A DNA stretch of 64,000 bases, taken from positions 21,231-85,230 of the forward strand of contig UQFN01000005.1 in the NCBI GenBank assembly GCA_900540365.1, read 5' to 3'. The stretch comes from an uncultured Mollicutes bacterium. Lineage in GTDB: Bacteria; Bacillota_I; Bacilli_A; RFN20; CAG-826. The notes beneath the pieces were generated by a model. That model had not been told where the DNA came from, made no database searches, and was given only the letters and a program-made list of their open reading frames with translations. This document shows, piece by piece, positions 1,445 through 37,986 of this stretch (position 1 is the first letter of the stretch; every line of letters begins with the position of its first letter). A program made the position numbers and the translations under genes.

Positions 1445-1473
1445 TTGACAAAAAAATGCATGAATGATAATTT
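1445..1473 (+). promoter_or_regulatory. Candidate sigma-A-type promoter of the 1527-15117 operon
   Basis: TTGACA (1445-1450), a 17-nt spacer ending TGa (1465-1467), then TAATTT (1468-1473), about 55 nt upstream of ATG 1527. Pattern match only. Confidence 0.35.
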
Positions 1474-1526
1474 TATTAGTAGGAGGAAAGGGTATATATA
1501 ATAAGGATATATCTCATTTAATAATT

Positions 1527-2156
1527 ATGAAATTATTTAAAACTTCAAAACTTATAATGGTCACTGCCATTGCTTTAGGCTTAGCATCAGTCGTCGGTAT
1601 TGGTGTTGGTGCCTATATTATTACAGGAGGAAATAAAACCGCTGAAGTACCTGTTACTGATGATGATATAGTAATAACTAATAATGTTGTTAATTTAACA
1701 GCTTCTTTAAAATCAGATGATAATAAACTTGTCTATGAACCTACAGAAGCAGTAACCGGTAAAAGATTAAATTCAGATGGTAATGGCGACTTAGATGTTA
1801 CACTTGTTTTAAGTGTTGAAGCAACTTCAACAAATATTATTCCAACATTTACCGTATCTGTTGTATCAAGTTATAGCGCTGAATCACCTGAATTAACTGC
1901 TTTAAACACTTATTTAGTTAAACCATCTGATGTTACAGTTAGTAACACGGAATTTACTGGATCTGCTCCATACACTAAAGAAGTAAAATTAACTTGGGCT
2001 TGGGGTAGTGCTTTTAATACTACCGATCCTTGTACTTACTATAACAAAAAATCTGAAGAAGAAGTTTCAACTGCTACTTTAGTTAGCGAAATGGAAAGCT
2101 TTAGAGATAATGTTAATGGTAACACTTGGAAAATAGAAATTAATCCTGTAGAATAA
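1527..2156 (+). CDS. Cassette-1 protein A1: secreted/anchored protein with TasA/camelysin-style (SipW-dependent-type) signal peptide
   Basis: The track ORF starts at 1464, inside the putative promoter. ATG 1527 gives MKLFKTSKLIMVTAIALGLASVVGIGVGAYIITGG. This is a basic n-region plus an h-region ending G-x-G-A-Y, comparable to GGGTFAYFSD (camelysin) and GGGTWAAF (TasA). The gene lies directly 5' of a SipW-type peptidase. Confidence 0.65.
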   Translation: MKLFKTSKLIMVTAIALGLASVVGIGVGAYIITGGNKTAEVPVTDDDIVITNNVVNLTASLKSDDNKLVYEPTEAVTGKRLNSDGNGDLDVTLVLSVEATSTNIIPTFTVSVVSSYSAESPELTALNTYLVKPSDVTVSNTEFTGSAPYTKEVKLTWAWGSAFNTTDPCTYYNKKSEEEVSTATLVSEMESFRDNVNGNTWKIEINPVE

Positions 2157-2173
2157 ATAAATTTATTTTAACA

Positions 2174-3097
2174 ATGATTTTTTATATCATCTTAGGAATT
2201 GTTATAATCATTGATTTAATTATTGTTATTTTATTAATTACTACTTCTATTAAATTAATAAAAGAAATTAATTTAGGAAGTTATGATGCGCGTTTGGTTT
2301 TTGAACGACACGAAAAAGAAGTTAAATCAAAAAATAAAAAACACATTTTTCTAAGAAAATTTATTAATATAACTTCAAATTTATTAATTCTAATTATTGG
2401 AATAATGTTTTTAATTGGCGTTGTAGATAGTTTTGTTAACGTTTCAAATATCAAGACTTTCGCTGTTCCAACTGGTTCAATGTCGTATAAAAATGAAGAA
2501 AATACTTATTTAGTAGAAAACAATTTAAATAACCAAATACAAATAAATGATTTAGTATTTGTTAAAAAAATTAATTCCTTAGATGATTTAAAACTTTATG
2601 ACATTATTTGTTATAAAGATGATACTCGTAAGATTAACATTATCCATAGAGTAATCGAAATTAATGAAGATTATGTAAAAACTAAAGGCGATGCAAATAG
2701 TGAAATTGATTTAAAAAATATTTATTTTGATGACATTATTGGAAAATATATTGATGTTCGTGTTCCTTATATAGGTGGGTTTGTCTTATTTACATCTTCT
2801 AATTATGGCTTATTAACTTTTGCATCAGTTCTTCTTGCTTTATTAACTTATGCAATTAGTCGAAATAAAGTAGATGGTGTTGAAGAAAAAAGATTACAAT
2901 ACATTGATACTTATTTAGTTAATACAATAAACGAGTATGCAATTACTTCTAAATATGGTTATCTAGAAGTTAATAACAATAACTTTATATATAAAGAAAA
3001 AGAAGAAGAAAATACAGATATTTTTTCTTCTTCAATATTAAAAATTAACGATAAAGTTATTGCCCTTAGTAAAGGAGAAAAGAAAGATGAAAAATAA
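2174..3097 (+). CDS. sipW: Signal peptidase I, SipW / ER-archaeal type, enlarged (307 aa)
   Basis: Catalytic boxes appear in SipW order: VPTGSMS (Ser), IIHRVIE (His), TKGDAN (Asp). There are N-terminal TM helices, a C-terminal TM (GLLTFASVLLALLTYAI) and a tail of about 80 aa. Confidence 0.8.
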   Translation: MIFYIILGIVIIIDLIIVILLITTSIKLIKEINLGSYDARLVFERHEKEVKSKNKKHIFLRKFINITSNLLILIIGIMFLIGVVDSFVNVSNIKTFAVPTGSMSYKNEENTYLVENNLNNQIQINDLVFVKKINSLDDLKLYDIICYKDDTRKINIIHRVIEINEDYVKTKGDANSEIDLKNIYFDDIIGKYIDVRVPYIGGFVLFTSSNYGLLTFASVLLALLTYAISRNKVDGVEEKRLQYIDTYLVNTINEYAITSKYGYLEVNNNNFIYKEKEEENTDIFSSSILKINDKVIALSKGEKKDEK

Positions 3098-4865
3098 ACT
3101 TAGTAAAAAAGAATGGTTATTTTTATCCTTATCGTTTTTTATTGCTTTAATGGTATTTTTAAGCGGACTAGGAATGGATGCTGGACATACTGTTTTTGCA
3201 AAAGGTAATATTTTTGAAGGTTTTGCTGAATTATTTCAAATTCCTAAAATAACTGCTAACGCTGGAATTTGGATTATGCTCTTATTATTTAGTATTGCCA
3301 TAATTACAACAAGTGTTGCTATATTGTATGTAAGAAGATATTTAATAAAACATGATAAAGATCCTAATTCACTTGTTTCATGGCTATATTATATTGGTTT
3401 ATTTATAGCTTCATTTGCTTTAATGTTAGCAATTGGAACTCTTTTTCAAATTCCTAATGGACGTATTGAAACATATGGATTAACTTTAACTTATGTTTTT
3501 GGTGCATTAGTTATTGGAGTTTTACTTTTTGCAATTATTGCTATATTCTTTTGGGCTTTAATTGGGACTTTACTTTATATTTACCAACCAACCGTTCATC
3601 CTTCTAAACCATTAGTTGATGTATCTAAAGATTATGATGAAAAAGAAGACAAAGTAACTAATGATGAGCCATTAAAAAATACTTTATTAGGTAATAATAA
3701 CCAAACAATTAATACAAACTTGACTCCTGTAAGCACTGGTTCTTCTTTATTTAATAATGGAGTAATTGCTTCTAAAGAAAAAGTTTTTACTAATTTAGTA
3801 GCAATTGACGAAGAAGGTCCAATGAAATTTTTTGATGAAAATAAAGAAAAAATTACCTTAAAAGATTTAGTTGTTAATTTACAAATTTATTTAGCAAATG
3901 TTCATAACTTGTATTACAACAAAAATGAACTTGCTCAATTTATTGCAGGAATGAACGCATCTAAATTAATTATTTTAGAAGGTATCTCTGGAACTGGTAA
4001 ATCTTCTTTACCAAGATATTTTGCTAAATTTATTGGAGAAGATGCTTTCTTTGAACCAATTCAAGTTACTTATAAAGAAAAATCTGATTTACTTGGTTAT
4101 TATAATGAATTAACTGGTAGATATGTCGAAACTAATTTCTTAAAAGAACTTTATCGTGCAAGTATGAATACTGAACGTTTAAATTTAATGGTTCTTGATG
4201 AAATGAATATTTCTCGTATTGAATATTATTTTGCTGACTTTTTATCAGTTATGGAATTCCCTGAAAATGAACGTCAAATTCCAATTATGTCATTACCAAG
4301 CGATTATGATGCTCCAATAAATTTAAAAGATGGGATTTTAAACATAACTCCTAACACTTATTTTATAGGAACCGCTAATAAAGATGATTCTACTTTTACT
4401 ATTACTGATAAAGTTATTGATAGAGCGATTGTCATTGATTTTGAAGATACACAAGTTGAAGCTAAATATGATAAAAATATAACTCCTATTAGTTTATCTT
4501 ATGATGAATTACATAATTTATTTAACGATGCTTTAAAAACTCATCCTTTCAAAACTAAAGATCGTGAAGTGTTTTTAAGTTTATTAAAATTTATTAGTGA
4601 AGAATTGGGTATTGTTTCTGGTAACCGTTTAATTAAACAAATAGATTTAATGGTTCCAGTTTATAATTCAATGGAAATTGATTATACAATTTGCCTTGAT
4701 TATTTCTTAGCTAATAAAGTTTTAAGAAAACTTGATGTTGTTTATGATTCATCTTTAAAAAATCAATTAACTAAATTATTAAAGAAACTTGATGAATTAT
4801 ATTTAAAAGATCAATTTTTATATTCAAAACGTCTAATTACTCGTTTTATTAGGAGAATTAGTTAA
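3087..4865 (+). CDS. Membrane-anchored AAA+ NTPase of the McrB / AAA_5 (dynein-related) type
   Basis: RBS AAAGGAG lies 9 nt before ATG 3087, and the start overlaps the sipW stop by 11 nt. The protein has 4-5 N-terminal TM helices (aa ~15-185) and an Asn/Thr-rich linker. Motifs: Walker A GISGTGKSS, Walker B LMVLDEMN, and FIGTANKDDSTFTITDKVIDRA, which resembles the McrB MNxxDRS region. Confidence 0.7.
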   Translation: MKNKLSKKEWLFLSLSFFIALMVFLSGLGMDAGHTVFAKGNIFEGFAELFQIPKITANAGIWIMLLLFSIAIITTSVAILYVRRYLIKHDKDPNSLVSWLYYIGLFIASFALMLAIGTLFQIPNGRIETYGLTLTYVFGALVIGVLLFAIIAIFFWALIGTLLYIYQPTVHPSKPLVDVSKDYDEKEDKVTNDEPLKNTLLGNNNQTINTNLTPVSTGSSLFNNGVIASKEKVFTNLVAIDEEGPMKFFDENKEKITLKDLVVNLQIYLANVHNLYYNKNELAQFIAGMNASKLIILEGISGTGKSSLPRYFAKFIGEDAFFEPIQVTYKEKSDLLGYYNELTGRYVETNFLKELYRASMNTERLNLMVLDEMNISRIEYYFADFLSVMEFPENERQIPIMSLPSDYDAPINLKDGILNITPNTYFIGTANKDDSTFTITDKVIDRAIVIDFEDTQVEAKYDKNITPISLSYDELHNLFNDALKTHPFKTKDREVFLSLLKFISEELGIVSGNRLIKQIDLMVPVYNSMEIDYTICLDYFLANKVLRKLDVVYDSSLKNQLTKLLKKLDELYLKDQFLYSKRLITRFIRRIS

Positions 4866-5968
4866 TGAAAGAACGTACAATTTATCAAAATAATTTCCAA
4901 CTTCAAACAATTTATGAAATTAAATCTCTTTTAAGCCACGTCTATCATATCCTAAACTCTTATAAAGTAGATTTAAAACATTTTGATAATATTGTACGTA
5001 TTGAAGATTTTAAAAAATATGATCATAAATTAGTTAAAGAAAGTTTAAAAGATTCACGTTTATTTGGTAACCAAAATAATAATATTTATTTAAAACGTGT
5101 ACATTCTTATACTTATGAAACTGATTATGATATATACGAAAATCGATTTATTGTTTTCTTAGTAAAATATTTAAAAGAGACTCTTCTTGAATATTGCTAT
5201 CGTAAACAAAGCATTAAACTTCCATTTTTAAATACTGGGATTAGTTATGGAGAATTTGGAACTTATTCCTTACTTAAAAAATATTCTTTAGATACTTTAA
5301 ATAATAATTTTAATGATTCTATCGATGAATTTTCAAATTTAATCGGCGTTATAAATAATTTACTTAAAAAAGATTTCTTTAATAAAATTAAGCCTTTAAA
5401 TTCAAATGAAATATATCCAACTAATCTTTTATTACAAGATCAAAATTATTCTTTTTGTTATTTTTTCTATCTTGATATGATGAGAAATAATTTAGAAATA
5501 AATAACAAATTTAAATTAAGTTTAAAAAATAAACTTAAGGAACTTCAACAAAATTCATTTTTAACAACTAGTGATGGTTTTAAATTTAAAAAAGATGATT
5601 TTCTTTTTATTTTTAAAGAAAGTGAATATGGTTATAAGTTAATAATTCAAAATGAATTAATTTCATCTTTACATGAATATGACTTAAAGTTTGATGTTAA
5701 CTTATTTTTAGTAAAGTTAGTTATTATTAATGATCAAAAAAAATATAATTTCATGATTAATAATCTTGAAAAAGTCATTGAAATTATATATTCCTTAACT
5801 TCAATATTTAAAAAATCTCCTCTTATTTGTCCAATTTGTGGAGAAGAATTATTAACTGATAATAATTATTGTCATATTTGTCATGCTAAATGGGATAATT
5901 TAACAAACTCAGATGTTGTTTGGGTTTTTAACCCTTATGAAATATCTAAGGAGGTAGTATATGAATAA
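4865..5968 (+). CDS. Partner of the AAA+ gene: possible McrC-N/DUF2357-like region plus C-terminal zinc ribbon; no nuclease motif recognised
   Basis: The ATG overlaps the preceding TAA (TAATG). YDIYENRFIVFLVKYLKETL resembles the ENR helix I recall from DUF2357/McrC N-domains (memory only). CPICGEELLTDNNYCHICHAKW is a CxxC-x10-CxxC zinc ribbon. I find no clear PD-(D/E)xK triad. Confidence 0.5.
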   Translation: MKERTIYQNNFQLQTIYEIKSLLSHVYHILNSYKVDLKHFDNIVRIEDFKKYDHKLVKESLKDSRLFGNQNNNIYLKRVHSYTYETDYDIYENRFIVFLVKYLKETLLEYCYRKQSIKLPFLNTGISYGEFGTYSLLKKYSLDTLNNNFNDSIDEFSNLIGVINNLLKKDFFNKIKPLNSNEIYPTNLLLQDQNYSFCYFFYLDMMRNNLEINNKFKLSLKNKLKELQQNSFLTTSDGFKFKKDDFLFIFKESEYGYKLIIQNELISSLHEYDLKFDVNLFLVKLVIINDQKKYNFMINNLEKVIEIIYSLTSIFKKSPLICPICGEELLTDNNYCHICHAKWDNLTNSDVVWVFNPYEISKEVVYE

Positions 5969-7076
5969 ATTTAAACGTTTTTTAAAAGTTTTATTTTTAA
6001 GCGCTAGTATAAGTTTATTACCTAGTTGTGGGATTTTTGGTAATCAATATGGGGGAGTAATGATTTCAGGAATCACTGCTACAACTAATGCTAATGGTGA
6101 GACTGAATTAACAATTACTTTTACTGATGAAGATATTGAACCTGTTACTTTTGTTATTCCTCAAGGAGAACAAGGTGAAACTGGGGCTCAAGGTGCTCCA
6201 GGAGTAGGAATTTCCACAATTAATGTTTTTCCTTCGGAAGATGGTACATATTCGACAATAGTTATTACATATACTGATTCTTCTATTCCTTCAACTTCTT
6301 TTATTGTTGAAAATGGTGTTAGTGTTATAAATATTACTTCATCAATTAATATAGAAAATAACTCTACAATAATTGAATTTCACTTATCTAATGGTGAAAC
6401 TAAACAATTTGAAATTAAAAATGGTAAAGATGGAGTTGGTATTGAAAGTGTTATTGAAGAAAGAAAAGAAAATGGAGATGTTGTAATTACAATTACTTAT
6501 ACTGATGGTAGAGAACCTAGTGTTATTACTTTACCTTATAAAAATGGTGAAGATGGTCGAGGAATTCAATCAATAATCGGAACACAAAACGGAAACAACT
6601 ATGTGATTACAATTATCTTTACTGATGGAACTTCAACTGAATTAACTCCTATTGAATTACCAGAAACTACTAAATGGTTATATGGTCAAGGTGCTCCTAA
6701 CTTTAGAGTTGAAGAAGAAGCTAATCCCGGTGATTATTATTTTGATTTAGAAAATTACATTATTTACTTATATGATGGGGCAAATTTTAATCCAATTATT
6801 AATTTAACAGATATTCCTTCTTCTACTAAAAAGTATACTGTTAGTTTTGATGCTAATGGAGGAAGTTTTACTTCTTCTATTCCAACAACAATTACTGTTG
6901 ATGCAGGAAAACCAATTGATGCAAGTAGAATTCCAACTTGTTATAAAGAAAATTGTAAATTTATTGGATATTATACAACTCCTGAAGGTCCACTTAATCC
7001 TTTAAGTGGAAAACTTACCGATTTAGTTCCTATTTATAGTGACTATACGTTTTATGCTTCTTATGAGGAAATTTAA
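5961..7076 (+). CDS. Lipoprotein with collagen-like G-x-y triplets, five ~38-aa internal repeats, a tail-fibre-like segment and one Listeria-Bacteroides (Flg_new) repeat
   Basis: RBS AAGGAGG. Lipobox SLLPSCG. Collagen-like run GEQGETGAQGAPGVG. Repeat units end in NGKDGVG and NGEDGRG (ITFTDE.., VITYTDS.., ITITYTDG.., ITIIFTDG..). NPGDYYFDLENYIIYLYDG resembles phage fibre tips. C-terminal YTVSFDANGG...FIGYYT...YTFYASY is the Flg_new repeat. Confidence 0.7.
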   Translation: MNKFKRFLKVLFLSASISLLPSCGIFGNQYGGVMISGITATTNANGETELTITFTDEDIEPVTFVIPQGEQGETGAQGAPGVGISTINVFPSEDGTYSTIVITYTDSSIPSTSFIVENGVSVINITSSINIENNSTIIEFHLSNGETKQFEIKNGKDGVGIESVIEERKENGDVVITITYTDGREPSVITLPYKNGEDGRGIQSIIGTQNGNNYVITIIFTDGTSTELTPIELPETTKWLYGQGAPNFRVEEEANPGDYYFDLENYIIYLYDGANFNPIINLTDIPSSTKKYTVSFDANGGSFTSSIPTTITVDAGKPIDASRIPTCYKENCKFIGYYTTPEGPLNPLSGKLTDLVPIYSDYTFYASYEEI

Positions 7077-7087
7077 AATATTTTAAT

Positions 7088-7786
7088 ATGAAATTAATCA
7101 AAAGCAAAAAAATAGTATTTTCTATATTAAGTTTAATTGGAATTAGTTTAACTATTTCTACTGCTTTTGGTATTTATACAATCGTTGGAACAAGTAATAA
7201 ATCTATACTTGTTAATGATGAAGATATTATTATCAATAACTATAGTGATTTGTTAGTCTTACAAACATTAGGTAGTAACGATAAAATGTATACAGCTTAT
7301 GACTTAATTGTTAGCGATGAAATAGTTTTACCTTTTTTAATTAAAACTGATACTAAATATGATGATGTTTTATCTTCAGGCGGAATGAGAATTGAATTTA
7401 ATGTTCCAAATGAAAGTTTATTTAACTATACTCAACATAAATTAATTAATGAAAAAAATTTCTTTATATCAATTATTGGTAAACAAGTTTATGAAATGAA
7501 TCCTTCAACTAATTATACCTATTTAAAAAATAATGTTGCTTATAGTATTTTTGAAGTCGATTATACAAATAATAAATTTAATATTCATCTTCCTTTTACA
7601 AGAGATCATAGTGAAATTAGTAATTTTAATATTTGGGATTTAAAAGGAAATATTATAAATAACGAAGCTAGTTTTAGTTTAAAATTTGATTTTGATATCA
7701 TTGATGAATCTTTAGGATATTCAACTTTATTTAGTCCTAGTGATTTTAATAATTTTAAAATTGATATTTTTATTGAGGTATATTGA
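7088..7786 (+). CDS. Cassette-1 protein B1 with TasA-style signal peptide
   Basis: N-terminus is MKLIKSKKIVFSILSLIGISLTISTAFGIYTIVG. 232 aa. The TGA stop is overlapped by the next gene. Confidence 0.6.
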   Translation: MKLIKSKKIVFSILSLIGISLTISTAFGIYTIVGTSNKSILVNDEDIIINNYSDLLVLQTLGSNDKMYTAYDLIVSDEIVLPFLIKTDTKYDDVLSSGGMRIEFNVPNESLFNYTQHKLINEKNFFISIIGKQVYEMNPSTNYTYLKNNVAYSIFEVDYTNNKFNIHLPFTRDHSEISNFNIWDLKGNIINNEASFSLKFDFDIIDESLGYSTLFSPSDFNNFKIDIFIEVY

Positions 7787-7788
7787 TT

Positions 7789-10254
7789 ATGAAAAAGTTT
7801 AATAAATTTTCTTTAACTTTATCCATAATATGCCTTAGTTTATTAGCAACTACTAGTATAGCATTTGCTAGTTATATGATTGCTGAACTTACTTATAATG
7901 ATTTTACATCTTCGGATTTAATTAGCAATGATAATTCAAGATTACATCAAATTATTTTTATAGATGATTCAACGCAAGTTGGTGAACTTTATGTTAAACC
8001 TGATAGTAAAATTGATTTAAGTGATGTTCCATATCTATTTAATTCCAATAATGAATTATTAGAATGGAAAGATAGCTCTGGATCAACAAAAATTAGTTTA
8101 ACTCAATCATTTACACCAACTTCTGATACAACTTTAACTGCTTCAGTTGTTTCTAAAACTGATTTAAATAGTGCTGTAAACGTTGAAAGTGGCTCAGGAG
8201 TATCAGTTTCTAGTAATTCTGTAACAATAAATCAAACTACATCTAGTGGTACATCTAATATAGTATCAATTAGCGGAAATATTGATAAAACAATTACGTC
8301 ACAAAGTTATGATGCATTTGGCTCAAATAATGTTTTTGCTGATCTAAGCGACAAGGAATCATTTTTTAGACCTGATAGAAAAAATCAAGCAAGTGGAAAC
8401 AATACTATTGGATTATCAGATAATACATTAGCAAACAAGATAAACTTATCAGGTGATTTAGTAATCACTAATTCAACTTTTAATATAAGTGCTTGGACAG
8501 GGTTTTATAATAGTTACGATTATTCGCAAATAAATTTCCAAGGCTATATAATTGGTAGTTACACACAGCTTGATTTATGTGGAAATAATTTGATTGTTGG
8601 CAACGGAGCAACCTTAAATGCTTATGGTCAAATTGTTGATAGCGTAGGCGGTGGTAAAATTATCGTTGAAAAAGGAGGGACTTTAAAATCAACCTTTGTT
8701 GTTGAAGATCATGTTCACGAGAGACACACTCCTGTTATATACGCATATGGTGGCAGTATTTTTTCAATGTATCGTATGGCATATTTAAATTGCGATATCG
8801 AATTTAGATATGGTTCTTCTGCTTATGGAATTTTGAGAATGGATTTTGGTGGCAATAATGATAATTTTTATGATGGGGAATTAAAACTTATTGGTACCGA
8901 CTCTTCATCATATATTCAAATGAATTCAAATAAAACTGATGGATATATTTTAAGAGAACATACAATTGATGCTGGTGTTCAAAGTGCAATATCTAGTAAT
9001 GATTTTTCTAAAAATAATCTTTTAAATCAAAAATATAAATATTCTTTTAATAACTTAGATATTACGATTAATCCACCAAAATTTAATATTTCATTTACTT
9101 CAGTACTAATTACTTTAAAATTCGATATAAATTTTGGTAAGGGAAACAATTTCATCCCACCATATTTTGATTTCTATTTATATGATACAAAAGTGACATT
9201 AAAAGCTAATTATACATTTTTGACTGGTTCATATTTATATGTCGATTCAAAATCGATAATTAACTTATCTGGTGATTCTAGTGGACATTTTCAGGCTCCA
9301 TCTTTAATTTCAGGTAAATTTACTGAACACTATTATCAAGCTAAAGGTGGTTTAAATTTTGTTTCTCAAAAATGGTATTTTAACGATGCAGTTACTTCAA
9401 AAGATAAAGGATGGTGTCTAGGAAGAGATAGCGAAGATGGTGGATTGTATGGTATTGGAAATAATATCATCTATTCTAGTACAAAAGTATTTTGGGGCTA
9501 TTTAAATAGAAGTAAACCAAGTTATTGCGATATGGAAGGTACTTTTACTTTTGATGATACTTATACTTCAACAACTACTAATGATAAAAAATATATGCTT
9601 GGTGGAAATATAAATATTTCGAATATTGAGACTTTTAAAAATGTAGTAAATTCAAGAAATGATGTTTATTTATATGGATCTACTGCTAAAATTGGACCAT
9701 GTGGATCTTATGGTGTGCCCTATAACTTTGGCACACATATAGTAGGTGTTACAGACTATTTTATTTCACCATTAATTAGTGATGGAAATGTCTTAACTAA
9801 TATGAAGGATAAAACTAAAGTAAGAGAAGATTACGCTAGTTCTTATTCTTCGTATAGTACGGAAACTGGATTAGTTAATTATGGTGGAAAATATTATGCT
9901 TTTATGACTACTAATGCTGAAGGAACATCTTTTAATAATGATAATTCAGGACATGTTAATAAGAGTAATTATGGTAGCGATGAAAACGCCTATCGAAATG
10001 GATTAGATTCTTGTTATGGTACATTTGTTGAAGTAACTAATAATTCTGCTAGTCATTCAGTTATTTGGAATAAAACTGGAGAGACTTATGTTTATTATCG
10101 TGGTATCTTTTTACCATTTACTTATGGTAGTTTAAGTTCTTCTACGGTTAATATGAATAAAATGTCAATTCAAGCTGTTGGAAATCGTACAATAATTTGG
10201 AAAACTTCTAGTACTGATAATTATTATGGGCATGGAGCATGGTGGATATTATGA
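7789..10254 (+). CDS. Cassette-1 giant protein C1 (about 821 aa) with TasA-style signal peptide and beta-helix-like Gly/Asn-rich repeats
   Basis: ATG 7789 gives MKKFNKFSLTLSIICLSLLATTSIAFASYMIAE. Segments such as GNNLIVGNGATLNAYGQIVDSVGGGKIIVEKGGTLKS look like passenger-type beta-helix rungs. Confidence 0.65.
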   Translation: MKKFNKFSLTLSIICLSLLATTSIAFASYMIAELTYNDFTSSDLISNDNSRLHQIIFIDDSTQVGELYVKPDSKIDLSDVPYLFNSNNELLEWKDSSGSTKISLTQSFTPTSDTTLTASVVSKTDLNSAVNVESGSGVSVSSNSVTINQTTSSGTSNIVSISGNIDKTITSQSYDAFGSNNVFADLSDKESFFRPDRKNQASGNNTIGLSDNTLANKINLSGDLVITNSTFNISAWTGFYNSYDYSQINFQGYIIGSYTQLDLCGNNLIVGNGATLNAYGQIVDSVGGGKIIVEKGGTLKSTFVVEDHVHERHTPVIYAYGGSIFSMYRMAYLNCDIEFRYGSSAYGILRMDFGGNNDNFYDGELKLIGTDSSSYIQMNSNKTDGYILREHTIDAGVQSAISSNDFSKNNLLNQKYKYSFNNLDITINPPKFNISFTSVLITLKFDINFGKGNNFIPPYFDFYLYDTKVTLKANYTFLTGSYLYVDSKSIINLSGDSSGHFQAPSLISGKFTEHYYQAKGGLNFVSQKWYFNDAVTSKDKGWCLGRDSEDGGLYGIGNNIIYSSTKVFWGYLNRSKPSYCDMEGTFTFDDTYTSTTTNDKKYMLGGNINISNIETFKNVVNSRNDVYLYGSTAKIGPCGSYGVPYNFGTHIVGVTDYFISPLISDGNVLTNMKDKTKVREDYASSYSSYSTETGLVNYGGKYYAFMTTNAEGTSFNNDNSGHVNKSNYGSDENAYRNGLDSCYGTFVEVTNNSASHSVIWNKTGETYVYYRGIFLPFTYGSLSSSTVNMNKMSIQAVGNRTIIWKTSSTDNYYGHGAWWIL

Positions 10255-10985
10255 TAAATGAAAATAAAATGATTGAAGTTAAAAATTTAAATAAATCCTA
10301 TGGTAAACATCAAGTGCTCTTTGATGTTAATTTTGATATTTATGAAGGGGAGTTATTTGGCTTAATTGGTAAAAATGGAGCTGGAAAATCTACTACTATT
10401 GAATGTATTTTAGGAGCTAAAAAATTCGATAGTGGAGAAATTTTAGTTGATCATAAAAATATTAATAAAGATGCTTTAGAAATTAAAAAAATAATTGGTT
10501 ATGTTCCTAGTGAACCAACTTGTTATTTAGATATGACTGGTTATGATTACTTAAATTTTGTTGGAAGTTTATATCAAGTAAGTTTTAAAACTTTTATCGA
10601 TAATGTTGATTTTTTAGTTAAATTATTTGATTTTTTAGAAAAAGATTTATATCGACCAATTAGAGAATATTCTCATGGTATGCAACAAAAGATATGTTTA
10701 ATGGCTTCTTTAATTCATAATCCTAAAATTTGGATTTTAGATGAACCAACAGTTGGTCTAGATCCTGTTGCTGCTAATGAATTAACTAAATTAATAAAAG
10801 AATTTATTAAACATAATAAATCTTGTTTTATTGCTTCACATAATATTGAGATGATTGCTAAATTATGTGACCGAGTTGCAATTGTTAAAGATGGAGAAAT
10901 TAGTGAAATTATCGATTTAAAAAATAATCCAAATATGCGTAGTAAGATACCAAGTATTTTTATGAAAGTTTATAATTTATTATGA
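10251..10985 (+). CDS. ABC transporter ATP-binding protein (ABC-2 exporter type) with degenerate signature motif
   Basis: ATGA overlap with the C1 stop. Walker A is GKNGAGKST. The signature position reads YSHGMQQK instead of LSGGQ. Walker B is WILDEPTVGLD. Confidence 0.85.
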   Translation: MINENKMIEVKNLNKSYGKHQVLFDVNFDIYEGELFGLIGKNGAGKSTTIECILGAKKFDSGEILVDHKNINKDALEIKKIIGYVPSEPTCYLDMTGYDYLNFVGSLYQVSFKTFIDNVDFLVKLFDFLEKDLYRPIREYSHGMQQKICLMASLIHNPKIWILDEPTVGLDPVAANELTKLIKEFIKHNKSCFIASHNIEMIAKLCDRVAIVKDGEISEIIDLKNNPNMRSKIPSIFMKVYNLL

Positions 10986-12595
10986 TTACTTTAAAAATTG
11001 CTTTAAAAGAAATTATGTCATTAGCCTTTTTTAACAAAAAAGGTTATAAAAAGTATCTTTCGTTAGCTACTTCAATTATTTTAATGGCTTTTTTTATCTT
11101 CTTAGAATGTTTTTTATACATTATGATTTTTAATAAAGTCGATGTATTTATAGATTTAAATTATTCTTTAATTATTATTATTTTATCGATATTTACTTTT
11201 ATTGGAACAATCTATTCGATGATTACTTGTAATAAAATATTTTTCTCTAATAAAAAAGAAAGAATAATTTTAGGAATTTCTCCAGTTAATATTTTAGAAG
11301 TTATTATTGGAAAATTAATTTTTGTTTATTTAAAGACTTTTATTTATTTTACTTCAACCTTTTTTGTATTTGCTTTAACTTATGGAATTAAAGTTCAAAC
11401 AGATTTTATATATTTTATTTGGATGTTTCTTTCTATTTTTATTTTAAGTTTAATGAGTGTAGGATTAGGAATATTATTTACTATTCCTTTTAGAGAAATT
11501 ATTAAATTAGTAGTAAGGTTTAAAATTATTAGTTTTATTTTAATTGTTATTTTAATTATATTACTTGCTGTTGGATATAATTTATTAATGAAATTATTTA
11601 TTGATTTATTAAGAAATGCTTCTTTAGATACTTTATTTACAACTCAAAATGTAGAAACTTTAAAAAAAGTTGCTAATAGTTTATATCCTTTAAAAAGTGT
11701 TGTTGATTATGCTTTAGTAATTAATAGCGGAGTTAATGCTTTAATTATTTTAACTTTTAGTCTTTTATCTATTTTATTTGGAGTGTTCTTTTTCTACTTC
11801 TATTTAAAAAATTATTATCATAACGATGATCAAGCTAAAGATATTAATAAAGTAAAATCTAAAAAAGTAAAATTAATTTCTCCAATACAAGCTTTAATAA
11901 AAAAGGAATTTTTATTGTTATTAAATAATAATGATGGATTATTTTCATATATCTTTTTAGTAATTTTACAACCATTCCTTGTTTATAGCGTTATTTCTAG
12001 TTTAAATTTAATTTTTTCTACTGGTAATTTTATTTATATAAACACTTTATTTCCTGAAATTTATTTATGTGTTGATATTTTACCAATCTTATTATTTTTA
12101 TCAGTTATTAATATGACATCTTCAATGTCTTTAACAAAAGAACGTCAAACCTTAATCATTATGAAAACAATTCCAGTTTCCTTTTTTAAACAAGTATTAG
12201 TTAAACTAGGAGTAAATTTTGTTGTTTCATTAATATCATATATAGCAACATTAATTACTTTAATTGCTACAAAAGAAATTAGTTTATATACTTTCTTATT
12301 TTTAATTATTATTGGAACATTAGCTTTACTTTGTTTAAATATTATTTCAATTAAAAGTGATTTTAAATTTAAAGCAAATTCCGATTTATTATCAATTTTA
12401 GTTGGTTTTGTTTTCCCTGTTTTATATGTTGTAGTTGCCACAATATTTATAATTTTTATAGAAACTTCTCAAACTGAAATTTTCTTTTTAAGTATAATAG
12501 CTCTTTTAGAATTAATTACTTTAGGAATTCTACTAATTAAATTTAAATCAAAAATTACTGAACAATTTTTAAATTATGAGGGGGTAAGTCTATGA
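10982..12595 (+). CDS. ABC exporter permease, about 12 TM
   Basis: ATGA overlaps on both sides. The 537-aa protein is uniformly hydrophobic with two 6-TM halves. Confidence 0.7.
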   Translation: MITLKIALKEIMSLAFFNKKGYKKYLSLATSIILMAFFIFLECFLYIMIFNKVDVFIDLNYSLIIIILSIFTFIGTIYSMITCNKIFFSNKKERIILGISPVNILEVIIGKLIFVYLKTFIYFTSTFFVFALTYGIKVQTDFIYFIWMFLSIFILSLMSVGLGILFTIPFREIIKLVVRFKIISFILIVILIILLAVGYNLLMKLFIDLLRNASLDTLFTTQNVETLKKVANSLYPLKSVVDYALVINSGVNALIILTFSLLSILFGVFFFYFYLKNYYHNDDQAKDINKVKSKKVKLISPIQALIKKEFLLLLNNNDGLFSYIFLVILQPFLVYSVISSLNLIFSTGNFIYINTLFPEIYLCVDILPILLFLSVINMTSSMSLTKERQTLIIMKTIPVSFFKQVLVKLGVNFVVSLISYIATLITLIATKEISLYTFLFLIIIGTLALLCLNIISIKSDFKFKANSDLLSILVGFVFPVLYVVVATIFIIFIETSQTEIFFLSIIALLELITLGILLIKFKSKITEQFLNYEGVSL

Positions 12596-15117
12596 AAACT
12601 AAAGCTATTATTTTTCTATTAATTTTACCCTTAGTTATTTCTATTTTAGCTTTTGTATCTTCGAGCTTTTTTATTCGCGGAGTAGAACAAGATATAACTG
12701 CTATTAGTTGGAATTATAAATCTAATGAAGGTTTTTTAATTAGTGAAGGTAAAGTTAAACTAGAAGCTAAACCAATTTATGATGAACGTTATCCTTTAAG
12801 TGAAGGTAATAATTTAGTTTGGACTTTAAATAATAATGATTATTGTAAATTAGAAATTATTAATGATGAAACTTACTTAGTTCCTTTTTCTCCAGGAAGT
12901 ACAATTGTTACTTGTCAAAATGAAAAGCAAACAATTACACAATCATTTACAGCAGTAATTATTGGTGATGAAGGAGCGATTATTCTTAATCCAATAATTC
13001 CTTTTTCAAAAAATAGTATTTCTTCAACTAATTATGTTGGTTTATATGAATCAACAACTAGTTATGATAATAATCAAATTGATACTACTTTAAAACTTGA
13101 AGTTGAAATTATTGGAGGAAGTTCTTCTATTGCAACTTTAAGTGTTGATCATAGTGACAATATTGAATTTAATGTTGATAAAAAAGAAATTACTTTCTTA
13201 AAAGAAGGCGAAGCTTATTTACGTTTATATCGCAGTTATTCTTCTAAAGGTGAAGCGTATCTTAACTTTGATATTGTTAAGGCAGTGAATATTTATAATT
13301 ATGAAGGATTAATAAATGTCACTAATAAAACTAATAAAAAGTATCCTGCAGTTTTAAGAGTTAATTTAGAATCCTTCGATAATACTTATATTGTAAATAA
13401 AGATAATACTTTAACAAAAAAATCAAATGATACTGAACTATTTGGTCAACTTGATGAAAATAATAAAGTAAAGTCTTTTATTGATGATCTTTATATTTTT
13501 GAAACTACCTATAATCATGATTTTTTAAATAGTTGGAATGAGTCAGTCAAAAATAATTTGATAGAAAATGCCTATGAAACACCAATTATTCGTTATGCTG
13601 GAGTACATATTCAATCAGATTTTTATGGAAATGGTTTTACAATTAATACTCATGAATTAGTATATCCAAGTTTAACCCAATCGATTAATGTCGATGGTAA
13701 TACTATTGTTGTTCCTTTATTAAGTGATGAAGATTTATATCGTGGTCCATTAGCTTTTGTGACAATGGGAGATCCCAATTATATTTTTGATCAAACAATT
13801 CAAAAGCCAATTTTTACTATATTTGGACAAGATAATAGTTCATTTTATATTAACGATGATAATGTTACTGTTGATAATGTTCATTTTAAAGGTTGTGATT
13901 TTGGTAACAACTTAACTAATTTACAATATACTGGTTCAACTCTTGATATTAATGCTAACAATGTTGTAATTCAAAATAGTATTTTAGAAAATAATCGTAA
14001 TATAATTCGTTCATATTCAAGTAAAAATTTATTAATTGATAATTGCTTATTAAGAAATTCAATGGAATTTCTATTTAGAAGTGGATCTAATGAATTTAAT
14101 AAAGTGAATTATGATGAAAATGTTCGTTATTTAGGAGAAAATAATGTTTCATATATTACTTCAAAAAGTAATTATTTAAGTAAACAAATTTTTACTGATA
14201 ATGGTCTAGATGATATTTCTAAAAGTTATCGAGCCGATTCATTATTAACTAATTCTGCTGTAGTTAATACTCAAGCTAATGAATTTTTAAATACTCCATT
14301 ACAAGGTTATACTAAAGAAGAGTTTATTATTGGACAACAAACTATTCGTGAAGCATTAACTAACCTTGAAGGAATTTATGGTGAAAATAATAAAAAAGTT
14401 TATGCAGGAAATACTATTATTAATGATACTTATTTCCAAAATAGTGGAATTTCTGCAATTTCGATGGATACTTTATATCAAGGTCCATTCTTAGAAACTA
14501 ATATTACTTCTTTATTTATATTTTTATTAGGAATTTATACAAGTTTCCTTCCTAAAAATTTAGCCTTAACTAGTTATCCAACATTATTAACTTTAAGTGG
14601 AGATATAAGATTTTATGATTGGAAAAATAAAAATAATTTATATTTTGAATCTTTAGTTGATGAAGATATTGCTGGTTTAATAATTGCTCATGGTGGATTA
14701 GGTTCAAGTTTTGAAGTTAATATTAGTGAAGATGATTATTTACCAATTAAAAAGATCTTGTTAGATAATTATTCAAGTGATGTTTTAAGTAATGATCAAT
14801 TAAACATTCCAATCTATTTCCAAGGCGGAGGATATAATGCTAGTGAAGTTATTATTGATGAAGAATTAAAATCTTACTTTAATTCAATACCTTACGATAT
14901 TGATCCATTTGTATATTCATTAGATTTAAAACAAACTCCATCAACTCATTTTATGAGTGATCCACAAGCTAAATATGAGGCTATGAAAATTGCAATGTTA
15001 AGAGCGTCTTCGAATTTTATAGGTTTATATTCATATAAATTATTAACTTTAAATAATGAAGTTTCTAAATGGATTGGGGAAACTCCTAATATTAATGATT
15101 TAATTTCTAGAGCTTAA
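12592..15117 (+). CDS. Large secreted/anchored protein with Ig-like segment and right-handed beta-helix-like repeats
   Basis: N-terminus is MKTKAIIFLLILPLVISILAFVSSSFFIRG. GSTIVTCQNEKQTITQSFTAVIIG looks like a Big_2 domain. NNVVIQNSILENNRNIIRSYSSKNLLIDNCLLRNS looks like parallel beta-helix rungs. Confidence 0.6.
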   Translation: MKTKAIIFLLILPLVISILAFVSSSFFIRGVEQDITAISWNYKSNEGFLISEGKVKLEAKPIYDERYPLSEGNNLVWTLNNNDYCKLEIINDETYLVPFSPGSTIVTCQNEKQTITQSFTAVIIGDEGAIILNPIIPFSKNSISSTNYVGLYESTTSYDNNQIDTTLKLEVEIIGGSSSIATLSVDHSDNIEFNVDKKEITFLKEGEAYLRLYRSYSSKGEAYLNFDIVKAVNIYNYEGLINVTNKTNKKYPAVLRVNLESFDNTYIVNKDNTLTKKSNDTELFGQLDENNKVKSFIDDLYIFETTYNHDFLNSWNESVKNNLIENAYETPIIRYAGVHIQSDFYGNGFTINTHELVYPSLTQSINVDGNTIVVPLLSDEDLYRGPLAFVTMGDPNYIFDQTIQKPIFTIFGQDNSSFYINDDNVTVDNVHFKGCDFGNNLTNLQYTGSTLDINANNVVIQNSILENNRNIIRSYSSKNLLIDNCLLRNSMEFLFRSGSNEFNKVNYDENVRYLGENNVSYITSKSNYLSKQIFTDNGLDDISKSYRADSLLTNSAVVNTQANEFLNTPLQGYTKEEFIIGQQTIREALTNLEGIYGENNKKVYAGNTIINDTYFQNSGISAISMDTLYQGPFLETNITSLFIFLLGIYTSFLPKNLALTSYPTLLTLSGDIRFYDWKNKNNLYFESLVDEDIAGLIIAHGGLGSSFEVNISEDDYLPIKKILLDNYSSDVLSNDQLNIPIYFQGGGYNASEVIIDEELKSYFNSIPYDIDPFVYSLDLKQTPSTHFMSDPQAKYEAMKIAMLRASSNFIGLYSYKLLTLNNEVSKWIGETPNINDLISRA

Positions 15118-29711: not shown

Positions 29712-31742
29712 TTAATAAGAATTCCCAATAAATTCTAAAATATATTCAACACTAATTTTTTCTTTATTAGATTTAAATATTGGTAAATATGTATAATATT
29801 CACTAGTTATCTTATCAATTAAGTTAGTAGTTATATTAAGTGAAAAATCTAAATAAGAATTTTCGTTATTAATATCTTTTTCTAAATCTACAAGTTTTTC
29901 TTCTTGAACAAATAACATTGGAATATTATAGCCTTCAACTACATAATTTTCATTAGTTGCATCATAATAAGTAAAATATCTTGTTCTTAATTCAATATCA
30001 TATCTTCTTGAAAGCATTTTAGTAGATAAACCACCATATTTCTTAGCGACAAAGACATCAGTGGATCCATTAACATATATGGAATAGGAATTCATACTTA
30101 AGTCTTCTTCTTCACTACTGCCTTTATGTATTGCTTTAATTGAATTAATACCACTAGTGTCGCTTAAATTAAACCATAATGTATTATATTCAGTTTCTGT
30201 TCCTAAAGCTGAAAGATGTTCATTAACTTCATATCCAATTAAATGTCCTGTGTTAGTATTATATACTTCGCAAATTACTCCATCAAAACCAGGTAATGCT
30301 CCGGCTTTATTTCCGATTACAGTTGTATAGTCTTCATTAATGTAAAATTCAGCAGCACTCGATGTAGAAATACTACCATCAATACCTAAATACTCATATA
30401 TGCTTCCAGATATACTTGCATCTTCATTAACAATCATATTAAAGTAAGCTCTTCTTACTCCACCATAACGTATAGCAAACGTATAATTATCACCATTAAT
30501 TACATATTTTAAAGCATTAGCATCATTTAGTTGAATTCTTCCAACTCGTTCACCAGTAGTTACATTTAATTCTAACCCAATTTGGACTTTAGTTTCACCG
30601 ATTAAAGGAATTGTAGTATCAAATTCAAGTACATAAATCATTAGTGTTCCATCAAAAGAAATATCTACTTTATATACTCCTACTTCAAATGAATATTCTG
30701 CAGTTGAACTAGGATTTTTATCTAAATAATTATTAAAGGCTGTAATGGATGCTGAAGAAACTAAATCAATAACACTTAAAACATTAAAGAAAATTGTGGA
30801 TTGATTCAAATTATCAACAACCATTTTCCATTGTTCACCATAACCATAATCCAAAATTAAGTTTGTATTTACAAAATTAGTATAATCAAAATCTAATTGT
30901 CCTTGATTAATTAGATTTGCTTCATATGAAGGTAATAATGATTGTGGAATCTTACTAAGTGGATTATATGAATATCCTTCTAATAAAGACTTCAAATATT
31001 GACCAATATTAACTTTTTCGTTATATGATGCATAGAAAGTAACATCACCAACTAATTTATATGGCCAAGTAACTGCAGTTGTTAAATCTTCATCGATACA
31101 CCAACCAACAAAACGATAGTTTTCAAGAATAGGTTTATCCTCAGGTTCATTAATTAATGTTCCATAATCTGCAGTTATACTATTAACTTTTGAACCATCA
31201 AATGTTTCAAAAGTAATTGTATATTTATTTATTGTCTCCTTAAATTTTGCAACATATTCAGTATTTTCTTTAACAGGAAGAATTTCTTTATCCCATCCAT
31301 CAAACGAGTATGAATATTCGACACTTTTTGGTTTTAAAGGAGTTTCTCCATCATATTTTGGTAAAGTATTATAAGGGACATTATTATCGATTTCTAAAAC
31401 GCTACCATCATAGTTTTTCCATACAACTTGATAAGTATTAATAACTTCATTAAAAGTAGCCGTATAAGTTGCATCGCTATAAGCTTTTATAACCGATGGA
31501 GTCCATCCACTAAAAGTATAAGAATATTGATCATTTCCTTCTTTACAAGGTTCTTTCCCATTATAAACTGGCAATTCTCCTTCTAATACTTCATCAACTA
31601 ACAATATATTACCATCATAGTTTTTCCACGTAATAGTATATTCTTTTGGTTCAGTTGTATCAGTTGAATTATTATTACAACTAGCTAATACAAATAAACT
31701 TAATAAAGAAAAACTAACAGCACTAATAAATTTTATATTCAT
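29712..31742 (-). CDS. Surface lipoprotein with three tandem Listeria-Bacteroides (Flg_new-like) repeats and a large C-terminal domain
   Basis: Lipobox LFVLASCNN. Three ~70-aa repeats: YTITWKNYDG..YTFSGW..YTATF, YQVVWKNYDG..YSFDGW..YVAKF, YTITFETFDG..FVGW..TFYASY. Confidence 0.75.
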   Translation of the reverse strand: MNIKFISAVSFSLLSLFVLASCNNNSTDTTEPKEYTITWKNYDGNILLVDEVLEGELPVYNGKEPCKEGNDQYSYTFSGWTPSVIKAYSDATYTATFNEVINTYQVVWKNYDGSVLEIDNNVPYNTLPKYDGETPLKPKSVEYSYSFDGWDKEILPVKENTEYVAKFKETINKYTITFETFDGSKVNSITADYGTLINEPEDKPILENYRFVGWCIDEDLTTAVTWPYKLVGDVTFYASYNEKVNIGQYLKSLLEGYSYNPLSKIPQSLLPSYEANLINQGQLDFDYTNFVNTNLILDYGYGEQWKMVVDNLNQSTIFFNVLSVIDLVSSASITAFNNYLDKNPSSTAEYSFEVGVYKVDISFDGTLMIYVLEFDTTIPLIGETKVQIGLELNVTTGERVGRIQLNDANALKYVINGDNYTFAIRYGGVRRAYFNMIVNEDASISGSIYEYLGIDGSISTSSAAEFYINEDYTTVIGNKAGALPGFDGVICEVYNTNTGHLIGYEVNEHLSALGTETEYNTLWFNLSDTSGINSIKAIHKGSSEEEDLSMNSYSIYVNGSTDVFVAKKYGGLSTKMLSRRYDIELRTRYFTYYDATNENYVVEGYNIPMLFVQEEKLVDLEKDINNENSYLDFSLNITTNLIDKITSEYYTYLPIFKSNKEKISVEYILEFIGNSY

Positions 31743-31753
31743 CTTTTTCCTCC

Positions 31754-37270: not shown

Positions 37271-37301
37271 ATAAAAAGTAATATTTAAAAATAATTAATT
37301 A

Positions 37302-37928: not shown

Positions 37929-37958
37929 AAAAAAAATCCCCCTAAACTTTGTGCTTAG

Positions 37959-37986
37959 ATAATAACACATTTTGTGTTATTGTCAA
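37959..37986 (-). promoter_or_regulatory. Promoter of cassette 2 with an operator-like palindrome between -35 and -10
   Basis: The minus strand reads TTGACA-ATAACACAAAATGTGT-TATTAT (extended TGt-TATTAT). ATAACACA-aaa-TGTGTTAT (37962-37980) is a perfect 8-bp inverted repeat filling the spacer. Confidence 0.5.

Follow-up and report, generated by a model that had tools for sequence, protein, structure and literature searches.

McrBC is the textbook GTP-driven restriction motor. Among the McrB-like GTPases, one branch is marked by a strictly conserved NxD signature, usually followed by a glutamate or a second aspartate, and this branch includes CoCoPALM, a McrBC clade that is linked to signal peptidases and that was named in one paragraph with its description deferred (Bell et al. 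2024, PMC11090510). The CoCoPALM GTPase is fused to an FtsB-like domain made of transmembrane and coiled-coil helices, and coiled coils usually occur on both proteins of the pair (Bell et al. 2024, PMC11090510). In the literature we found no later paper describing CoCoPALM beyond the 2024 paper and preprints, the supplement of Bell et al. 2024 holds no CoCoPALM entries, and a search for work joining SipW and McrB returned nothing relevant. Here we analyse three overlapping genes in a 64,000-nucleotide (nt) stretch of DNA, hereafter the window, from an uncultured Mollicutes bacterium (contig UQFN01000005.1, positions 21,231 to 85,230). We call them G1 (gene 1, McrB-like), G2 (gene 2, McrC-like) and G3 (gene 3, a lipoprotein); all coordinates below are window positions. 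A preliminary description of the window had placed the three genes at 3087-7076 with a set of motifs, and genes and motifs are all present there.

We consider it fairly probable that G1 and G2 are a McrBC-derived GTPase pair that has been re-used at the membrane and that belongs to the core genes of a conserved envelope operon of about ten genes, being neither a restriction enzyme nor an insert. The pair probably serves the cell envelope rather than DNA cutting. Judged from the sequences and their neighbours, its most likely role would be that of a membrane GTPase module for a SipW-dependent surface-protein system.

The membrane-anchored GTPase and its partner

G1, G2 and G3 are real genes and not chance open reading frames (ORFs), because the reading frames are long for DNA with a G+C content of about 24% and because all three have many homologues. 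The window reads cleanly in genetic code 11. G1 (3087-4865, plus strand) encodes 592 amino acids from an ATG at 3087, which has an AAAGGAG site 9 nt upstream and was also chosen by an independent gene call on contig ULOB01051052.1 of assembly GCA_900522185.1, with which the window was identified; the 601 residues given earlier are the count from a TTG at 3060. The gene overlaps sipW1, which precedes it, by 11 nt. G1 and G2 share a single base (TAATG, 4863-4867), as expected from the earlier observation that G2 starts on the stop codon of G1, and the two genes are translationally coupled. The overlap between G2 and G3 measures 8 nt, and an AAGGAGG site precedes G3.

G1 has three parts: a membrane domain of four helices whose outside loop is conserved, then a disordered linker, then an AAA+ module of the McrB type. 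The membrane domain (residues 1-166, 3087-3584) holds four hydrophobic segments by hydropathy, and the AlphaFold2 model has helices at residues 7-29, 59-88, 96-119 and 126-166 with a predicted local distance difference test score (pLDDT) of about 90. The transmembrane helices and McrB-like motifs of the preliminary description therefore stand, with four helices rather than four to five. Because of the basic N-terminus and the four helices, the AAA+ part of G1 should be cytoplasmic. In the first outside loop, D31 and N41 are conserved in at least 90% of 60 homologues; mean identity to the window G1 is 32% for the membrane domain and 37% for the outside loop. The linker (residues 167-229, 3585-3773) is of low complexity, and its residues 168-225 have a pLDDT below 50, at about 30. 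In most orthologues it is made of 20-30 E/K-rich residues and then a DLAxSF motif; the E/K stretch is nearly absent from the window protein. Most orthologues share this short conserved motif, (D/G)LAxSF, at about residues 190-205 (window ~3654-3701), and its conservation suggests a docking peptide.

The AAA+ module (residues 230-592, 3774-4865) has a Walker A motif, LEGxSGTGKSS, at 3981-4007, a Walker B motif, VLDEMN, at 4191-4208, and an NKDD sequence at 4377-4388, followed by a C-terminal helical lid; GISGTGKSS, VLDEMN and TANKDDST...DRA can all be read in the window protein. The N-terminal DNA-binding domain found in McrB is not present in G1, which has the four transmembrane helices there instead.

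We assign the module to the McrB type because of its profile alignment with McrB, its plasmid relatives and its NxD signature. In hhalign, the G1 profile matched E. coli McrB residues 176-348 with a probability of 85.8% (E 5.4e-6) over 164 columns that span Walker A to the signature motif, and the control comparison with RavA, a MoxR protein, gave a probability of 3.9% (E 0.011). Of the 60 G1 homologues, 59 have N431 and all have D433, and residue 434 is an aspartate in 53 and a glutamate in 7. With this N-x-D-[D/E] signature G1 fits the NxD branch of McrB-like GTPases, with the caveat that the ungapped hhalign alignment with E. coli McrB also permits an NxxD reading. The AAA core has a mean identity of 71.5% across homologues that are 35-55% identical overall. 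Other searches were less specific. The Pfam match, found in 42 of the 60 homologues, is to the generic family AAA_5; when PDB sequences were searched with the G1 profile, McrB scored no better than E 0.17-0.5, short of significance; and Foldseek with the G1 model returned the whole MCM/dynein/NorQ/McrB clade, in which McrB was not separable from MoxR.

On plasmids, tblastn with G1 matched the AAA core only, at 30-38% identity, and the best matches were 800-aa 'AAA family ATPases'. G1 residues 252-574 align with the 800-aa ATPase of Deinococcus plasmid p96k at 34% identity (E 1e-50), with IGTANKDDST of G1 opposite IGTANHDETT (NHDE there). The p96k operon encodes, in order, a large AAA protein, a hypothetical protein, the ATPase and a DUF2357 protein. 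In Polaromonas pPNAP01 the gene after the ATPase encodes an unannotated hypothetical protein, and the order is CoCoNuT-like, as in p96k. We found no full-length match among 72,556 plasmids and no relative in 2.9 million viral contigs. Among defence-system models, PADLOC PDC-M26A matched G1 with E 3.4e-41, over profile positions 296-442 of 724 only (~150 positions), in the AAA core. A phage record from human faeces ('Bacteriophage sp.', MT835511.1, 40037-41107) also encodes a relative of the AAA core alone (31% identity, E 6e-39), which has no membrane domain. Mobile DNA does carry soluble relatives of this GTPase core, in contrast to the form with a membrane anchor.

G2 is a soluble McrC homologue in which the nuclease half is replaced by a small beta domain and a Cys4 zinc ribbon. 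Its N-terminal McrC-type domain (residues 1-231, 4865-5557) matches Pfam DUF2357, the McrC N-terminal domain, with E 6.2e-10 and 39.2 bits (cut-off 23.3), and the G2 profile (residues 15-207) matches the DUF2357 protein of the Deinococcus plasmid with a probability of 97% and E 9.4e-11 in hhalign. This agrees with the earlier association of the YENRF helix (residues 91-95, 5135-5149) with DUF2357/McrC N-domains. A second motif, PTNLL (residues 185-189), has the family consensus PTNILL. Among 35 orthologues the invariant residues are Y91, E92, N93, T186, N187, Y195, C322, C325, C336 and C339, and no others; R45 is nearly invariant, and E47 is invariant in the separate set of 36 sequences used for the model. 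Clustering at 50% identity leaves about 1,900 representatives of the G2 family.

The AlphaFold2 model of G2, built with 36 database homologues (pLDDT 79), has four parts: an N-terminal region of helices and a beta-hairpin, a helical bundle to residue 231, a six-strand beta domain at 239-298, and the zinc ribbon. The longest helix, of 39 residues (193-231), is part of the helical bundle. The middle domain (residues 232-310, 5558-5794; six beta strands and one helix) sits where the McrC nuclease would be, has a mean identity of 16.7% and shows no conserved acidic/lysine motif. No D...(D/E)xK nuclease motif is conserved among the 35 orthologues, and neither Foldseek nor Pfam gave a nuclease match, in keeping with the earlier failure to find PD-(D/E)xK in this protein. 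We rejected an ordinary type IV restriction pair because G2 lacks this nuclease.

The C-terminal part of G2 (5795-5968) contains the ribbon, CPIC-x10-CHIC (residues 322-339, cysteine codons 5828-5881), whose cysteines, already noted as CxxC-x10-CxxC, are those invariant in the 35 orthologues; at 75 of 78 loci the gene that follows G1 encodes a CxxC...CxxC motif. Zn_Ribbon_1 is matched weakly by G2, and A2L_zn_ribbon is matched by a G2 homologue. G2 has no transmembrane segment by hydropathy. PADLOC models matched neither G2 nor G3 nor about 36 G2 homologues. Taken together, a membrane-anchored, nuclease-less McrBC-like pair, as first described, is borne out by a G1 profile far closer to E. coli McrB than to RavA and by the McrC N-domain of G2.

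Some G2 homologues carry C-terminal additions (P0221, P0225, P0235 (about 940-1120 aa), P0237, P0250 and P0273). A GNAT domain (Acetyltransf_3, RimJ/RimL-like) directly follows the zinc ribbon in some, and others have one to three copies of an unannotated module of ~110 aa with the motif ...SW.YDSF.LGR..VKL..KGK.L..F.ALD...

Conservation and layout of the operon

A pattern scan covering one genome per GTDB species found a G1 relative in at least 558 species-level genomes. The carriers are almost all uncultured gut Bacilli and Mollicutes-like lineages, among them Acholeplasmatales, Anaeroplasmataceae, Ca. Enteromonas, Alloenteromonas, Onthovivens, 'Staphylococcus sp. CAG:324' and some Christensenellales. 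For synteny, the ORFs of 80 retrieved species-level loci were searched with the window proteins, and the denominators given are the loci with room to show the feature. The zinc-ribbon G2 lies directly after G1 at 75 of 78 loci, and at 65 of 74 sipW directly precedes G1 (median gap -4 nt). Four further genes, for an ABC ATPase, a permease, an ~800-aa protein (X841 in the window) and G3, are each found within 9.5 kb downstream of G1 at 51 of 54 loci. G1-G2 are thus surrounded by the same neighbours in about 90% of the 80 loci, at identities down to 32%.

Two gene orders are seen. Close relatives (40-53% identity) have the order of the window, A-sipW-G1-G2-G3-(B)-C-ABC-permease-X841. Most other loci (32-38% identity) have the commoner order, (A)-sipW-G1-G2-ABC-permease-X841-G3, so that in most loci G3 stands at the far end of the operon, after X841, and is usually its last gene. 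Compared with the commoner order, B and C are interposed genes and G3 is moved. The order sipW-G1-G2 is kept from 53% to 32% identity. These results revise two claims of the preliminary description. The trio had been taken for an insert in a simpler cassette, and G1 and G2 prove to be core genes between sipW and the ABC transporter across the 80 loci. The three genes also do not form a unit, since G3 is mostly at the far end of the operon and is absent beside G1-G2 pairs that stand alone.

Both orders occur in one metagenome-assembled genome, ERR321628-bin.40, at L004 (CAJJXG010000006) and L040 (CAJJXG010000003), whose G1 proteins are 53% and 34% identical to that of the window; the two orders therefore represent paralogous systems and not just lineage variants. 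At two loci (L019 and L030) a large C protein lies between sipW and G1, giving sipW-C-G1, and the sipW-G1 junction is therefore not absolutely fixed.

In the window the operon comprises ten plus-strand genes (1464-15117), which mostly overlap or have a few bases between them. A terminator scan of this strand over the same interval returned a single site, at 1814-1832 within A1, which is not above chance. G+C is steady at 22-27% across the region with no shift, the flanks carry housekeeping genes (AsnA, CorA and oxidoreductases), and we found no mobility genes near the operon. Pfam searches found neither a nuclease domain nor a VWA domain in any of the ten proteins.

The first gene, A1 (1464-2156, probable ATG start at 1527), encodes a small secreted protein with basic and hydrophobic stretches and a GxGAY/GFAAW-type motif. 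It is followed by sipW1 (2174-3097), which encodes an archaeal/ER-type (SipW-like) signal peptidase I (Pfam Peptidase_S26) with extra transmembrane segments and a C-terminal tail. SipW1 matches TIGR02228 with E 7.7e-17 and 61.6 bits (cut-off 51.85), and its boxes TGSM, IHRVI and GDAN are visible in the sequence. Downstream of G3 lie B1 (7088-7786), a second small protein with an A-type N-terminal motif (TAFGIYTI), and C1 (7789-10254), a large secreted protein of 821 aa with the N-terminal motif SIAFASYMI, which has no known domain and has orthologues in the close (type I) loci. The N-termini of A, B and C are built alike: basic residues come first, then a hydrophobic stretch, then a GFAAWVI-like motif that in the window is confined to the cassette proteins. 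Across loci, one to several secreted proteins per operon carry such a motif. A, B and C are putative SipW substrates. The A-family consensus is KRK, a hydrophobic stretch and GFAAWVI, with WGSAFxGxNPxxYYN near the C-terminus (A1, L018:7605-8258 and others). Neither the A-family profile nor its members had a match in Pfam, NCBIfam or PDB sequences, and no substrate of the TasA/camelysin family was found.

The operon ends with three further genes. The ABC transporter ATPase (10239-10985; DrrA/GldA-like, ABC-2 subfamily) matches Pfam ABC_tran with E 2.1e-28; it also matches TIGR01188 and TIGR03522 (each about E 2e-50), in neither case reaching the curated cut-off. Its partner is a polytopic ABC permease of 537 aa with no family match (10982-12595). 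The final gene encodes X841 (12592-15117), a protein of 841 aa with an N-terminal anchor and a probable right-handed beta-helix; Pfam Beta_helix is matched, weakly, by 3 of 21 X841 orthologues. Searches of PDB, Pfam and NCBIfam with X841, C1, C2 (the C protein of cassette 2, below) and the permease gave nothing but these weak Beta_helix matches, and X841 had no PDB sequence match.

G3 (5961-7076) is a lipoprotein whose lipobox cysteine, Cys23, is invariant in 24 orthologues. It has five Gly-X-Y triplets (GEQGETGAQGAPGVG), about five short beta-rich repeats with GxDGxGI linkers between them, and a C-terminal Flg_new / internalin B-repeat domain (6834-7058). The lipobox, the collagen triplets and the GDYYFD...IYLYDG motif of the preliminary description are all present in the window protein (the motif is also given for G3 in the form GDFYFD...IY.K..G.W), and the affinity to phage fibres is not. 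The collagen stretch is only five triplets long and varies among orthologues, and PHROGs returned no phage tail-fibre family for G3, its one weak match being to a family of unknown function. Across G1-G3, A1, B1, C1 and X841, PHROGs gave no tail-fibre or other informative family. The collagen or tail-fibre reading of G3 was rejected on these grounds.

A second cassette (32937-37970, minus strand) comprises A2 (37970-37302), SipW2 (37270-36236), B2 (36246-35503) and C2 (35522-32937). As described before, it runs A-SipW-B-C with no gene between SipW2 and B2, and it lacks G1, G2, G3, the ABC genes and X841. SipW1 and SipW2 are 35% identical, SipW2 scores 43.1 bits against TIGR02228, under the cut-off of 51.85, and C1 and C2 have no detectable sequence similarity. 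Because G1 and G2 are core operon genes in the synteny survey, cassette 2 is a reduced paralogous copy consisting of peptidase and substrates.

Further genes adjoin this cassette. Directly downstream (29712-32617, minus strand) are genes for a 676-aa lipoprotein, which has the Flg_new repeat also found at the C-terminus of G3, and for an HTH_3 regulator with C-terminal transmembrane segments; they are possibly an accessory and a regulator of cassette 2. Just upstream (38083-38427, minus strand) is YidD, a membrane protein insertion efficiency factor (TIGR00278, E 5e-19) that here has an additional membrane segment at its N-terminus. Also adjoining the surface-protein cassettes is a gene (38760-40229, minus strand) for a lipoprotein-like protein in which Pfam recognises a CotH kinase domain (E 1.5e-21). 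Elsewhere in the window (41627-45201, minus strand), a gene pair like SbcC/SbcD, encoding an AAA_23/AAA_15 ATPase of 838 aa and a Metallophos nuclease of 353 aa, is ordinary repair machinery unconnected with the finding.

A model for G1-G2 and its alternatives

We propose a model for how the pair could work. By analogy with the McrBC structures of E. coli and Thermococcus (PDB 6HZ4, 6UT6 and 6UT3; Bell et al. 2024), six G1 chains would assemble into a ring beneath the membrane, to which 24 transmembrane helices would tether it. The G2 N-domain would plug this ring and trigger GTP hydrolysis, and the ribbon and beta domain of G2 would bind a partner. On the outer face, possible contacts for the conserved G1 loop are SipW, the permease, G3 or the substrates. 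The genomic context suggests that the GTPase cycle may act through the membrane domain to gate, power or organise the way in which SipW-cleaved A, B and C are processed, exported or assembled at the surface, and that the pair may act together with the ABC transporter, X841 and G3. Cassette 2 may use the machinery of the operon in trans.

A more far-reaching proposal, which we put forward tentatively and with some doubt, is that a McrBC-type GTPase ring taken from restriction or defence is the membrane engine or gate of an undescribed surface-filament or secretion apparatus. This apparatus would comprise a SipW peptidase, GFAAW-tagged subunits, an ABC exporter, a beta-helix protein and a lipoprotein, and would be widespread in wall-less or reduced gut Bacilli (RF39, Acholeplasmatales, Anaeroplasmataceae). 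If true, a nuclease-less, membrane-anchored McrBC in a surface-protein operon would be a case of a restriction motor re-used for envelope biology. With at least 558 species-level genomes carrying it, the operon probably represents a major surface feature of abundant, poorly understood gut microbiota, and most of its ten proteins match no known family.

Several observations weigh against an envelope role for a McrBC-derived pair. It is gene order alone that suggests the coupling of G1-G2 to SipW, the ABC transporter and the secreted proteins. A, B, C and X841 have no recognisable homologues, and a fibre or surface structure is a guess. The descent of G2 from McrC was not recovered in two comparisons: hhalign of G2 with E. 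coli McrC was non-significant, and Foldseek with the G2 model against the PDB returned nothing at E <= 0.001 and no nuclease, with McrC (6hz4_M) at E 0.076 and a YdjA-YdiS model at 0.05. Both proteins have their nearest relatives in a branch with a predicted defence function, and G1 matches a candidate-defence model of PADLOC. In some G2 homologues the C-terminus is variable, with GNAT acetyltransferase or repeated ~110-aa additions, and such variation is more typical of conflict systems. Finally, 5 of the 80 loci have G1-G2 without nearby sipW or ABC genes. In these stand-alone pairs G1 lies at about 9443-11137 (L075), 4522-6279 (L079), 9965-11632 (L080), 4112-5800 (L082) and 1976-3715 (L083); they come from some Christensenellales and 'Bacillales UBA' genomes, and their G2 is often longer (460-790 aa). 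The pair is therefore able to function, or at any rate to be maintained, away from the operon.

Membrane effectors are common in defence systems, and these last observations raise the alternative that G1-G2 are an anti-phage or abortive-infection module, in which the G2 ribbon senses infection, the GTPase ring activates a membrane effector in G1 (for example, one that makes the membrane leaky), and the sipW operon is merely a common neighbourhood. The plasmid-borne nearest outside relatives with their CoCoNuT-like gene order, the PDC-M26A match (E 3.4e-41), the stand-alone two-gene loci and a fast-evolving G2 with variable C-terminal fusions, including GNAT, would all fit such a module. Nevertheless, we consider it unlikely. 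G1-G2 lie in a translationally coupled operon that keeps its neighbours in about 90% of 80 loci at identities down to 32%, the GTPase core is strongly conserved (71.5%), and the window operon is flanked by housekeeping genes. The 2.9 million viral contigs gave no relative and the plasmids no full-length match, no nuclease and no other known effector was found among the operon proteins, PADLOC has no model that matches G2 or G3, and the PDC-M26A match is limited to ~150 of 724 profile positions. The preliminary description had offered an anti-phage or exclusion module as one option, and had named constant co-occurrence with sipW beforehand as the pattern that speaks against it. That co-occurrence is largely what we find, and an NTPase connected with surface-protein assembly is therefore favoured over anti-phage exclusion.

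The invariant Cys4 ribbon could instead bind RNA or DNA, which would make the pair a membrane-tethered, nucleic-acid-directed GTPase that holds or regulates operon transcripts or ribosomes beside SipW, or that controls expression of the operon. The NxD/CoCoNuT branch is predicted to act on RNA (Bell et al. 2024, PMC11090510), G2 is expected in the cytoplasm because it lacks a transmembrane segment, and the A2L_zn_ribbon match in a homologue and the weak Zn_Ribbon_1 match in G2 point the same way. However, ribbons bind proteins equally well, no nucleic-acid-binding domain was found beyond this generic ribbon, no conserved RNA or repeat element was noticed beside the genes, though no search was aimed at one, and the conserved outside loop of G1 points to an extracellular partner; we regard this role as rather improbable. 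Still less probable, in our judgement, is that G1 is a MoxR-type AAA+ chaperone for the insertion or maturation of membrane complexes, with G2 as an unrelated adaptor. Foldseek places MCM, dynein and NorQ/MoxR above McrB, the Pfam match is merely to the generic AAA_5, and one public source labels a G1 homologue 'MoxR-like ATPase'. Yet hhalign gave 3.9% for RavA against 85.8% for McrB, the partner carries DUF2357 and no VWA partner is present, and the N-x-D-[D/E] signature and 34% identity link G1 to an ATPase whose own partner is a DUF2357 protein. We see next to no chance that the three genes are a mobile cassette recently inserted between sipW and B of an ancestral A-SipW-B-C. Cassette 2, in the same window, does lack them, but the sipW-G1-G2 order persists from 53% to 32% identity, the commoner order has G3 away from G2 and shows B and C to lie between machinery genes, and there is neither a G+C shift (22-27% throughout) nor a mobility gene nearby. 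The mobile-insert reading was rejected as contradicted by the synteny survey.

Relation to described systems

Like E. coli McrBC, G1-G2 combine a McrB-type AAA+ module with a protein that carries the McrC N-domain and whose gene follows at once, its start codon overlapping the stop codon of the first gene. Unlike E. coli McrBC, they have neither a DNA-binding N-domain nor a PD-(D/E)xK nuclease, and G1 conserves NxD rather than NxxD. The MoxR chaperones differ from G1 in the RavA comparison (probability 3.9%) and in that no VWA-domain partner is encoded in the operon.

CoCoNuT systems (CnuB/CnuC), McrBC systems of the NxD branch equipped with coiled coils and with HEPN or other nucleases, are the closest detectable relatives of both proteins; they share NxD followed by D/E and a McrC homologue without an active nuclease. 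However, the G1 model shows no long coiled coil, the operon described here encodes no helicase, HEPN or other nuclease, and in G1-G2 a membrane domain and a zinc ribbon take the place of coiled coil and nuclease. CoCoNuT is plasmid- or island-borne, whereas G1-G2 are chromosomal and syntenic. With PADLOC PDC-M26, for which we found no describing paper in the literature, the likeness is confined to the AAA core of G1, which the gene A model matches; there is no full-length gene A match and no PADLOC match for G2 as the partner.

The operon also resembles TapA-SipW-TasA of Bacillus, in that a SipW/archaeal-type peptidase is encoded with small secreted proteins that share a motif after the hydrophobic stretch. 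The motif is GFAAWVI here and GGGTWAAF in TasA. Unlike the Bacillus proteins, the substrates here have no detectable similarity to TasA, camelysin or solved structures, and an NTPase, an ABC transporter and a lipoprotein are all missing from the operon of Bacillus.

The system most like G1-G2 in its described features is CoCoPALM. Both have an NxD-branch McrB-like GTPase with a membrane-spanning N-terminal fusion and a McrC homologue as partner, and both form a large clade. Both are also associated with a gene of the signal-peptidase family, which here is sipW directly upstream at 65 of 74 loci. They differ in that G1 has four transmembrane helices and no long coiled coil in its model, the E/K-rich stretch of most orthologues being only 20-30 residues long. 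The ABC transporter, X841, G3 and GFAAW-type substrates are unmentioned in the CoCoPALM paper. Compared by published description only, G1-G2 resemble CoCoPALM and may be members of it, and the operon may then be the first worked-out example of this clade. As CoCoPALM has so far only been named in the literature, our finding provides a delimited example, with coordinates, motifs and synteny, that can be checked against it.

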